From NCBI RefSeq assembly GCF_045037415.1, contig NZ_CP173438.1: a stretch of DNA of 64,000 nucleotides. One strand, 5' to 3'. This document shows positions 55,001 through 58,000 of this stretch, in pieces. Position numbers: made by a program. The stretch comes from Escherichia coli. Its GTDB lineage: Bacteria; Pseudomonadota; Gammaproteobacteria; Enterobacterales; Enterobacteriaceae. Positions within the stretch are counted from its first letter, which is position 1. Each line of letters begins with the position of its first letter.

Positions 55001-58000
55001 TGTGGTGCTACGTGACAAGCTGGAGCCGTACTTTGCGGAAGGTCGTTACCAGGATGCGCTGGTCGAACTGGCTGAGCTGCGTGAACCGGTCGATGCTTTC
55101 TTCGATAAAGTGATGGTCATGGTTGATGATAAAGAATTGCGTATCAACCGTCTGACCATGCTGGAAAAACTGCGCGAACTGTTCCTGCGCGTTGCGGATA
55201 TTTCGCTGTTGCAGTAATAACGCCGTTATTAAAAAGCCTGCCATCTGGCAGGCTTTTTTTATCGCTAAATAATACAGCAACCTTTAATAATCTTCTGCTG
55301 AATAAAGATTATCTCATATATTAATTTTATGAGATTTTTTTAGGATTATATCAAGGAGAAGAAACGAACTTATTAAGCTGGAATAGCCACGGGTGCTTGA
55401 GGCTGTTTGTCTCAGGTATTCACCGAAAGGCAGACAGAGAAAAGCCCCACCTGACTATAAATCAAAGTGTACTGCACCCATTTTGTTGGACGATGAAATG
55501 GAATAGCCCCTAATATGTCAAAGCCAAAATACCCTTTTGAAAAGCGCCTTGAAGTCGTGAATCACTACTTCACAACTGATGATGGTTACAGGATCATCTC
55601 GGCACGTTTTGGTGTCCCCCGAACCCAGGTCAGGACATGGGTTGCCCTCTATGAAAAACATGGAGAAAAAGGTTTAATTCCCAAACCTAAAGGCGTTAGT
55701 GCTGATCCAGAGTTGCGTATTAAGGTCGTGAAAGCTGTGATCGAGCAGCACATGTCCCTTAATCAGGCTGCTGCTCACTTTATGCTTGCTGGTAGTGGTT
55801 CTGTAGCCAGGTGGCTGAAGGTCTATGAAGAGCGCGGAGAAGCTGGTTTACGCGCGCTCAAGATTGGCACCAAAAGAAACATTGCAATATCAGTTGATCC
55901 AGAAAAAGCGGCATCAGCATTGGAGCTGTCAAAAGACCGACGCATTGAGGATCTTGAAAGGCAAGTTCGATTTCTTGAAACGCGGCTTATGTATCTAAAA
56001 AAGCTGAAAGCCTTAGCTCATCCCACGAAAAAGTGAAAGTACTCAACGAGCTAAGGCAGTTTTATCCTCTTGATGAGCTTCTCAGGGCTGCGGAGATACC
56101 GCGCAGTACGTTTTATTATCATCTAAAGGCTCTCAGCAAGCCTGACAAGTATGCGGACGTTAAAAAGCGTATTAGTGAGATTTATCACGAGAATAGAGGC
56201 CGATACGGATACCGTAGGGTAACGCTGTCTCTTCATCGAGAAGGGAAACAGATTAACCATAAAGCTGTTCAGCGCCTGATGGGAACCCTCTCACTTAAAG
56301 CAGCGATTAAGGTCAAGCGATACCGCTCTTACAGAGGAGAGGTAGGGCAAACCGCCCCTAATGTTCTCCAAAGAGATTTCAAGGCTACGCGGCCAAACGA
56401 GAAGTGGGTTACCGATGTTACTGAATTTGCAGTCAATGGGCGCAAGCTGTATTTGTCTCCAGTAATAGATCTCTTCAACAACGAAGTTATTTCTTACAGC
56501 CTTTCGGAAAGACCAGTGATGAACATGGTTGAGAATATGCTCGATCAGGCATTCAAAAAGCTTAATCCTCACGAGCATCCTGTTCTGCACTCTGACCAGG
56601 GATGGCAGTATCGTATGAGAAGATATCAAAATATCCTTAAAGAACATGGTATTAAACAAAGCATGTCCAGAAAAGGCAATTGTCTGGATAATGCTGTGGT
56701 GGAGTGTTTCTTTGGAACCTTAAAGTCGGAGTGTTTTTATCTTGATGAGTTCAGTAATATAAGCGAACTGAAGGATGCTGTTACGGAATATATTGAATAC
56801 TACAACAGCAGAAGAATTAGCCTGAAATTAAAAGGTCTGACTCCAATTGAATATCGGAATCAGACCTATATGCCTCGTGTTTAACTGTCCAACTTTTTGG
56901 GGTCAGTACAAAGTGAGGCTACCCTATGCCTGAACACCATAAGGTTAGCCTCTTACTCGTTGGAAATCAACACAGGAGGCTGGGATGCCGCAGAAATATA
57001 GATTACTTTCTTTAATAGTGATTTGTTTCACGCTTTTATTTTTCACCTGGATGATAAGAGATTCACTGTGTGAATTGCATATTAAACAGGAGAATTATGA
57101 GCTGGCCGCGTTTTTAGCCTGCAAATTGAAAGAGTAAGAATCTTCGGCGGGAAGTTATTCCCGCCTTTCTTACGGCGTTACGCATTCTCATTACACCCAA
57201 ATTTATTCTTCACAAAAATAATAATAGATTTTATTACGTGACCGATTATTTATTTCCTGAAAAACAAATAAAAAAATCCCCGCCAAATGGCAGGGATCTT
57301 AGATTCTGTGCTTTTAAGCAGAGATTACAGGCTGGTTACGTTACCAGCTGCCGGGCCTTTAGCGCCGCTTTCGATGGTGAAGGACACTTTCTGACCTTCG
57401 TCCAGAGATTTGTAACCATCGTTCTGGATAGCAGAGAAGTGTACGAACACGTCTTTAGAGCCATCGTCAGGAGTGATGAAGCCGAAGCCTTTGTCAGCGT
57501 TGAACCATTTTACGATACCAGTCATTTTACCGGACATAGTGTATTACCTTTAATAATTAATTGTGCCTTTCGGCGATATGGCGTGCTTTACAGATTTTGA
57601 AGCGTTAAAGGAATGTGCACTACGAGGGGTATCAACGATAACTCTTGAAGGGACTTGCCTTACTACACTGCTTTAATGGTCTGTACGTCAAACCGTTGAT
57701 GTGCATTAAGCCACGCATTGGTGGGTGATGCAACAATTATTTTTCATATTTATGATTAATCGGTTGGAAAACGGTCCTGTTATCAGGACCGTAAACAGAA
57801 ATAAAGTGGATAAAAGCCTATTCCATCAACTGCTTACTTAATGCCGGGTTGGCTTGAATCAAACGCATCAATTTTAGTTCGGCACTTGAAGGCTTCACGC
57901 GTCTGGATTCCCATTCCTTTACCATGGCGACTGATACGCCCAAAACCCGGGCGAAATCATCGATTTTTAATCCTGTCCCTTTTCGTAACTGCTCAATTTC

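Follow-up and report, generated by a model that had tools for sequence, protein, structure and literature searches.

The stretch analysed here, called the window below, is 64,000 nucleotides of Escherichia coli DNA (assembly GCF_045037415.1, contig NZ_CP173438.1), and the system in question is the chromosomal hokA/mokA/sokA type I toxin-antitoxin locus at window positions 55379-57198, flanked by glyS and cspA. We read this as the locus of a non-K-12 E. coli whose leader is split by one complete copy of the insertion sequence IS150, placed according to a compact target rule that puts IS150 at this same nucleotide in dozens of other hok loci as well. Taking anatomy and targeting rule together, we put the probability of this reading at about 0.8; what the insertion does to expression is much less certain. 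A hokA interrupted by IS150 is in itself a known object, and the locus alone carries little weight, K-12 hokA::IS150 having been on record since 1999 and annotation pipelines labelling both genes. RefSeq labels the K-12 locus hokA, and does likewise for genomes 100% identical to a 2,121-bp query.

IS150 occupies 55468-56910 on the plus strand. Its 1443 bp, its TGTACTG termini with imperfect terminal inverted repeats, its helix-turn-helix and rve domains (HTH_28, rve and rve_2 by Pfam), its AAG duplication and the existence of an empty site are all those of an IS150 element, and 1445/1445 bases, including 2 flanking nt, are identical to K-12 IS150. The copy contains insJ (55515-56036, plus), insK (56033-56884, plus, overlapping the insJ end) and an A AAA AAG frameshift site near 55997 (plus), and is potentially active. 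The target duplication stands at 55465-55467 on the left and 56911-56913 on the right. The empty site comes from strain Ecol_AZ146 (L002), an IS-free allele with a single AAG (...aatcAAGtgaggc...) and compared flanks exactly those of the window; its uninterrupted sequence across the insertion point, again with one AAG only, is ...aatcAAGtgaggct.... Since the empty site has one AAG, IS150 arrived by simple transposition, as the initial annotation had proposed from the duplications alone. The insertion point is 1 nt upstream of the mokA ribosome-binding site, inside a stem-loop that serves as SokA terminator on the minus strand and as mok ribosome-binding-site sequestration on the plus strand.

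The toxin gene to the right is intact. hokA has 50 codons (56985-57137, plus), with its ATG 75 bp past the IS150 end and a GGAGG ribosome-binding site at 56975-56979 (plus). Its product matches Pfam PF01848 (HOK_GEF) with E = 7.5e-22 and 77.1 bits (cut-off 22) over profile positions 1-42 of 42, and NCBIfam NF007290, the HokA equivalog, with 129.5 bits (cut-off 89) over 1-50 of 50; it is 49/50 identical to K-12 HokA, the sole difference being S36N. The 50-codon open reading frame (ORF) singled out in the initial annotation therefore belongs to the Hok/Gef family, and its 50-residue product is presumably a membrane toxin. PGAP annotates hokA in genomes identical to the window region.

The second ORF that had been noted, from the ATG at 56926, proves to be the mok homologue. 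The mokA frame (56926-57015, plus) has 29 codons in the window allele and overlaps the hokA start by 31 nt, spanning the hokA ATG; its ATG and its GAGG ribosome-binding site at 56915-56918 are in the same place as the mok start of the R1-type plasmid locus, and the ATG is homologous to the start annotated there (L005; cgaGGCatccctATGtct). No protein family in Pfam or NCBIfam matches the mokA product, as is expected of a regulatory frame. In other hokA alleles (L003, L007 and the mokA-pseudogene remnant of K-12), mok is in frame and gives a 70-residue N-extended Hok, which is why K-12 mokA is annotated with the same stop as hokA. A 1-nt switch before the hokA ATG (gggatg vs gggaatg, window 56982-56985) separates the 29-codon out-of-frame mokA from the 70-codon in-frame one, and both exist in natural alleles. 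The out-of-frame form of the window is also that of IS-free L002, and so the difference is unrelated to the IS150 insertion.

The leader is best followed with Rfam RF01794, which is named sok, yet matches the hok-sense strand up to the hok AUG, and which we take as a hok-leader model. Positions 1 to ~83 of the model align with 55391-55467 and ~84-157 with 56911-56987, the break falling exactly at IS150. The score is 127.2 bits for the intact L002 leader and drops to 89.3 and 43.9 bits for its separated parts in the window (gathering score 59), so that a hok-type leader is recognized in both halves and, when rejoined as in the empty site, above the gathering score. The first half (55391-55467, plus) holds the mRNA 5' end, the translational-activator/upstream-box hairpin and a GCCCC that is the pairing partner of the mok ribosome-binding site. 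A candidate hokA promoter −10 box, TGGAAT (55379-55384, plus), precedes the mRNA start by 6 nt; in hokC locus L004 a TATAAT is spaced identically from GGGTGCTTGAGG. Across the IS, the Sok target hairpin (GAGGCUACC...GGUUAGCCUC; 56915-56952, plus; RF01794 84-118) holds the mokA GAGG and ATG, and its arms are kept across the 28 distinct hok-family leaders that we aligned. After the hokA stop there is a GC-rich hairpin (57146-57165, plus), terminator-like in the terminator scan and the fold, which presumably stops 3' exonucleolytic processing, and beyond it the fold-back-inhibition element CUCA...CACCC (57185-57198, plus), which pairs with the mRNA 5' end at 55391-55402. This last pairing was obtained by fusing both flanks with one AAG removed; in the minimum-free-energy fold of the resulting 379-nt RNA, nt 1-5 and 8-12 pair with 358-362 and 349-353 (GGGUG..UGAGG with CUCA..CACCC), the 5' GGGUG meeting the CACCC at 57194-57198. 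The fold-back 5'/3' pairing of a hok mRNA is thus present in the rejoined RNA, and in the window its partners are 1,446 nt further apart.

On the other strand sokA is split, not removed. Its promoter at 56942-56970 (minus) has a −35 box TTGATT (56970..56965), a 17-nt spacer and a −10 box TAACCT (56947..56942); most of the 28 leaders have a minus-strand TTGnnn-17-TAnnnT at this fixed spot just downstream of the target hairpin, and the R1-type sok promoter is laid out as TTGCGC-17-TATCCT. SokA would start near 56935, 7 nt after the −10 box. The 5' part still on its promoter covers 56911-56935 (minus) and is the complement of the mokA start signals, ribosome-binding site and ATG. The 3' remnant, at 55433-55467 (minus), has kept the terminator hairpin's loop and 3' arm as well as the U-run (GGGGCUUUUCUC); NC_000913.3 annotates its counterpart as a 35-nt "sokA pseudogene". 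Native SokA, taken from the empty-site allele, is 53 nt long and is predicted to fold into a single long hairpin preceded by 10 unpaired nt and followed by UUUUCUC, the classical Sok shape. IS150 falls after ~nt 25, in the 5' arm of the hairpin, and native SokA cannot be made. The expectation that any Sok gene would lie at or across the insertion point is therefore correct, with the promoter and ~25 nt right of IS150 and the remainder left of it. The accompanying claim, that hokA was cut off from its antisense control, stands for the terminator remainder and U-run, which are now left of IS150, and fails for what stays with hokA: the sokA promoter, the recognition tail, and the SokA segment that can pair with the mok start signals (ribosome-binding site and ATG). 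In short, the part to the left of IS150 is the beginning of the hokA unit (its putative promoter and the mRNA 5' end, activator hairpin included) together with the distal portion of the SokA terminator, namely loop, 3' arm and U-run. The part to the right begins with the mokA start signals inside the Sok target hairpin, continues with the sokA promoter and ~25 nt of SokA, and ends with an intact hokA followed by the 3' hairpin and by the sequence to which the mRNA 5' end pairs. The window arrangement, with every hok/sok element kept but displaced, is in effect a natural test of how well antisense control and the 5'/3' refolding of the mRNA tolerate a 1.45 kb insert.

How hokA fares after the insertion can be set against the programme of plasmid R1, in which the hok mRNA undergoes 5'/3' pairing, 3' trimming and refolding, followed by mok translation and Sok binding. 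An inserted 1.45 kb of RNA would break the 5'/3' refolding, and with SokA deprived of its own terminator hairpin the locus would no longer be a normal hok/sok module; that the normal regulatory programme runs as designed is very unlikely. The initial annotation had hokA cut off from its promoter. Displaced it is, by 1,446 bp, but it need not be disconnected: IS150 is oriented the same way as hokA, and the terminator scan predicts no plus-strand intrinsic terminator between 55391 and 57146, and therefore read-through from the hokA promoter or from an IS150 promoter could possibly reach hokA. In the other direction, the sokA promoter would still fire, now into IS150. Within its right end IS150 has, according to the terminator scan, a candidate inward terminator (56833-56867, minus) made of a 15-bp hairpin with UUUUAAUUU after it, and the 121 nt of minus strand from 56935 to 56815 fold with −38.9 kcal/mol and z = −4.76. 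If transcription from the sokA promoter stops at that hairpin and its U-run, it would yield a chimeric antisense RNA of ~100 nt, able to pair with the region around the mokA start and with whatever transcript reads through. This RNA is a prediction, not an observation. It would account for an intact toxin gene being tolerated in about a thousand sequenced strains. Our best reading is a disabled module in which the toxin gene is harmless through weak expression, through a surviving chimeric antisense RNA, or through both.

The serious rival, to which we allow a substantial minority chance, is that hokA is wholly silent, with neither read-through nor functional antisense RNA, and that its intact ORF is a recent relic that has yet to decay. 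The native promoter is indeed 1.5 kb off, many insertion sequences block incoming transcription, and K-12 also retains an intact hokA ORF though its mok and sok are destroyed. Silence sits less well with the lack of any predicted plus-strand terminator across IS150, and with PGAP calling hokA intact in every window-type genome among the matches listed, including those only 98.6-98.9% identical over the region. Retention of the sokA promoter and of the SokA recognition end also speaks against it. None of this is proof of expression.

The second part of the main finding concerns where IS150 goes. A search with the right junction of the window returned, besides the locus itself, full-length matches of lower identity at other loci, and in these IS150 is in the same orientation and always one nt before G(A/G)GGC, with varying duplications: ACC at hokC (L004), CCC at hokE (L009), CCA at the R1-type plasmid hok, CCCA and ACC at two other plasmid hok loci, and AAG at a second hokA allele. 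IS150 thus occupies the homologous nucleotide, in the same orientation, in hokA, hokC, hokE and at least three plasmid hok loci. hokC and hokE are paralogous loci with different duplications, and their insertions are therefore independent of the one in the window.

For a sample that does not depend on the flank, metagenome contigs were scanned with a 34-nt IS150-specific end, giving 69 junctions with 43 distinct right flanks. G[AG]GGC starts 4-6 nt past the IS150 end in 32 of the 43, compared with 0.28% of window positions, so that the motif is enriched ~260-fold over background. Twenty-six of the 43 flanks are hok loci (21 hok-family leaders at the same site as in the window and 5 elsewhere in hok loci), and nine non-hok flanks carry the motif as well, for example inside a PTS IIA gene. 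These data make a strong case for an IS150 target rule of a 3-4 bp duplication, one nt, and G(A/G)GGC (NNN-N-GRGGC), with the right end of the element facing the motif.

The rule can also be seen from the other side. On plasmid L202, IS150 is inverted after ...AGCCTC-T-[TAC]; read on the other strand this is [GTA]-A-GAGGC, again with the right end facing the motif. L203 has the same arrangement with a TAA duplication, and L172 has IS150 on both sides of one hairpin. The Sok-target-hairpin arm of hok-family leaders presents the motif on both strands; the window is a case of IS150 on the upstream side of the hairpin, and K-12 would be a mirror insertion on the downstream side. From this we propose tentatively, at a little under even odds, that IS150 is in effect hok-leader-specific, its right end always facing the hairpin arm that bears the mok ribosome-binding site, from either side; that the frequent IS-inactivated chromosomal hok loci of E. 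coli come mainly from targeting, with selection secondary; that K-12 is a mirror insertion with an adjacent deletion; and that insertion on the upstream side keeps a working chimeric antisense RNA ending at the IS-internal terminator. If true, that RNA is what makes the upstream-side event harmless to the host.

The competing explanation for the shared position is selection: hok inactivation would be advantageous, and the position common to these loci would be the only viable place for an insertion. Adaptive inactivation is how the authors of PMC5419217 and bioRxiv 10.1101/527788 interpret hok/sok insertions, and viable positions would indeed be restricted, since killing Sok with hok active would be lethal. 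What selection fails to predict is single-nucleotide precision with fixed orientation in 28 divergent leaders, the same motif at nine non-hok sites such as the PTS IIA gene, and mirror-image insertions to which the rule applies when the opposite strand is read. The motif is enriched some 260-fold. We regard it as improbable as an account of the pattern, and prefer targeting; selection may add to the persistence of IS150 insertions in hok leaders. The homing of IS150 to hok leaders that the census suggests bears on the old question of whether targeting or selection makes IS-inactivated chromosomal hok loci so frequent.

Several other features were considered around the junctions. An (A)GCCCC lies 12-27 nt left of the insertion at all hok sites and at 3/3 of the first-examined non-hok E. 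coli sites; as a candidate second half-site it is absent from several other non-hok left flanks. Mimicry of the IS150 terminal repeat by the hok leader, after the manner of IS911 end-targeting, was dropped, as GTCAG, GGGG and CTTTT are common to both but in reversed order, a likeness that is physically meaningless. A hybrid outward promoter over the right junction (TTGGGG-17-TACCCT, 6/12 matches, found by eye) was too weak. A scan of species-representative genomes with the 21-nt IS150 right end retrieved mostly related elements and not IS150 itself. IS150-group elements of Streptococcus, Alistipes, Clostridia and Leptotrichia (L013-L132) end in the same 21 nt, and many of their right flanks have a hairpin at the start or a T-run within ~20 nt, a pattern that would fit insertion beside terminator-like hairpins, at their foot.

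The comparison closest to hand is K-12, where hokA (b4455), mokA (b4647) and sokA (b4614) form the same locus with the same neighbours and an IS150 100% identical to that of the window, again in the leader and not in the toxin gene, and with a HokA that differs by one residue. In K-12, however, IS150 is inverted, there is no target duplication, and ~40 bp (window 56914-56953) are gone, and with them the sok −10 box and the Sok target hairpin, including the mok start signals (ribosome-binding site and ATG); the window retains all of these, merely displaced. The initial annotation had pointed to a K-12 hokA locus interrupted by IS150, and such a locus is on record (NC_000913.3 annotation; PMC11551753), but the window does not have that arrangement, which was ruled out by exact string search, BLAST and direct junction comparison. 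That the window is nonetheless the K-12 locus, with sokA and mokA destroyed by IS150 and a dead hokA left behind, is therefore barely credible, for although genes, glyS and cspA neighbours and IS are the same and the left junctions lie within 2 nt, the IS150 orientation is opposite, a clean AAG duplication stands against none, 56914-56953 is kept, the flanks are only 97.5-98.2% identical to K-12, and searches by junction type return different sets of genomes.

The window arrangement and that of K-12 can be related through the target rule. In K-12 (L001, NC_000913.3 3720600-3722111) the sequence ...aatcaaagtt runs into the IS150 right end, and the left end is followed by tactcgttgg.... This second junction is exactly the mirror site, and we therefore read K-12 as the outcome of two events, reconstructed from the junction sequences: IS150 inserted in mirror image at the TAC site, and a deletion next to the element then removed the ~40-bp hairpin. 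IS150 adjacent deletions without target duplication are documented (PMC11708052). Two IS150 arrangements exist at hokA, and the K-12 reference would be the derived, deleted one, which matters wherever K-12 is taken to represent the hokA locus.

How common each is can be seen from searches for the individual junctions in 5,426 complete E. coli genomes. The hokA site is empty in 2,801 genomes, the K-12-type junction is found in 1,662, and the window type in 901 when the whole 2.1-kb region is required and in 1,132 by the left junction. About half of complete E. coli genomes hence have IS150 in the hokA leader, in two configurations of which that of the reference strain is the more damaged. Separately, some genomes (H172, H173) match the empty-site probe only from position 25 on, at two places (near the equivalent of L002:863-864), which suggests another insertion or rearrangement ~24 nt upstream in the hokA leader.

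A number of points weigh against the reading we favor. The strict motif is missing from 11 of the 43 distinct sites, and the rule is not absolute; IS150 also enters ordinary genes in laboratory evolution, an insertion in dgt having been shown (PMC11708052). The genome counts are not event counts, as many of the ~1,000 window-type genomes probably share one ancestral insertion. The left junction of K-12 (aaagtt before the IS) carries 1-2 nt (tt) that the reconstruction does not account for, and an undeleted mirror insertion at hokA was seen in none of the 5,426 genomes, although it occurs in plasmid hok loci. As for expression, U and A are mixed in the tail of the inward IS150 hairpin, which might fail to terminate transcription, and the generic sigma-70 scan missed both the hokA and the sokA promoter, which were placed by homology. 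The hokA promoter, the SokA start, the chimeric RNA and the read-through are all drawn from sequence and the plasmid R1 model.

Of the neighbouring genes, glyS (plus) ends at 55217, and cspA is at 57325-57537 (minus), where Rfam gives the cspA thermoregulator RNA 501 bits. An Rfam scan and tblastn with four Hok proteins found no other hok/sok locus in the whole 64 kb, so that no uninterrupted copy is present in the flanks, and all coordinates and sequence statements of the initial annotation were borne out. A 23-codon ORF at 57114-57185 (minus), antisense to the hokA 3' end and hairpin, corresponds to ysaE (b4793) in K-12; some strains have it as a "hypothetical protein" in their PGAP annotation, and it has no family match. 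Unrelated to hokA, Rfam matches above the gathering score were naRNA4 at 8854-8931 (minus, 77.5 bits) and ES036 at 21460-21502 (minus, 40.7 bits). Among other IS150-bearing hok loci, the metagenome contigs L161, L163 and L187 have one IS150 copy with its two flanks from different hok loci, for example plasmid-type left and hokA-type right, which suggests recombination between IS150 copies in different hok leaders. At hokC (L004) and hokE (L009), an IS4-like element annotated IS421 lies just 3' of the toxin gene and IS150 lies 5', so that the toxin genes there are bracketed by two insertion sequences.

Among known systems, the hok/mok/sok (parB) of plasmid R1/F type shares with the window the 5' activator hairpin, the Sok terminator complement, the mok start within a hairpin, a sok promoter that reaches into the stretch preceding the hok ribosome-binding site, the Hok ORF, the 3' hairpin and the 5'/3' pairing. 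It differs in that the locus of the window is chromosomal and interrupted, with a mok of 29 codons, and in that HokA is only ~38% identical to R1 Hok. IS150 in hokB/sokB is reportedly among the findings of Woods et al. in 2006. PMC11551753, which cites Pedersen & Gerdes 1999, gives sokA::IS150 in MG1655 and sokE::IS150 in >400 natural isolates; IS150 inserted recurrently beside hokC, hokE and mokB in evolving E. coli B (PMC5419217); and several hotspots of mobile-element insertion, in E. coli and in Klebsiella, have hok/sok homologues nearby (bioRxiv 10.1101/527788). All three sources treat the IS/hok pattern as inactivation, probably adaptive. These sokE, hokC, hokE and mokB insertions have the homologous leader position and orientation of the window, verified for hokE (L009) and hokC (L004). 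No statement of such a rule for IS150 turned up in the literature searched, and the first papers on the element may already give one. The nearest parallel for such a rule is the insertion of IS1397 and ISKpn1 into REP palindromes (PMC1525189), where IS3-family elements prefer a short motif at the foot of a palindrome, as IS150 does here. Neither the IS150 motif, NNN-N-GRGGC with the right end facing it, nor its main natural target, the hok leaders, was found described in the papers searched; the motif offers a compact and testable target rule for an IS3-family transposase.

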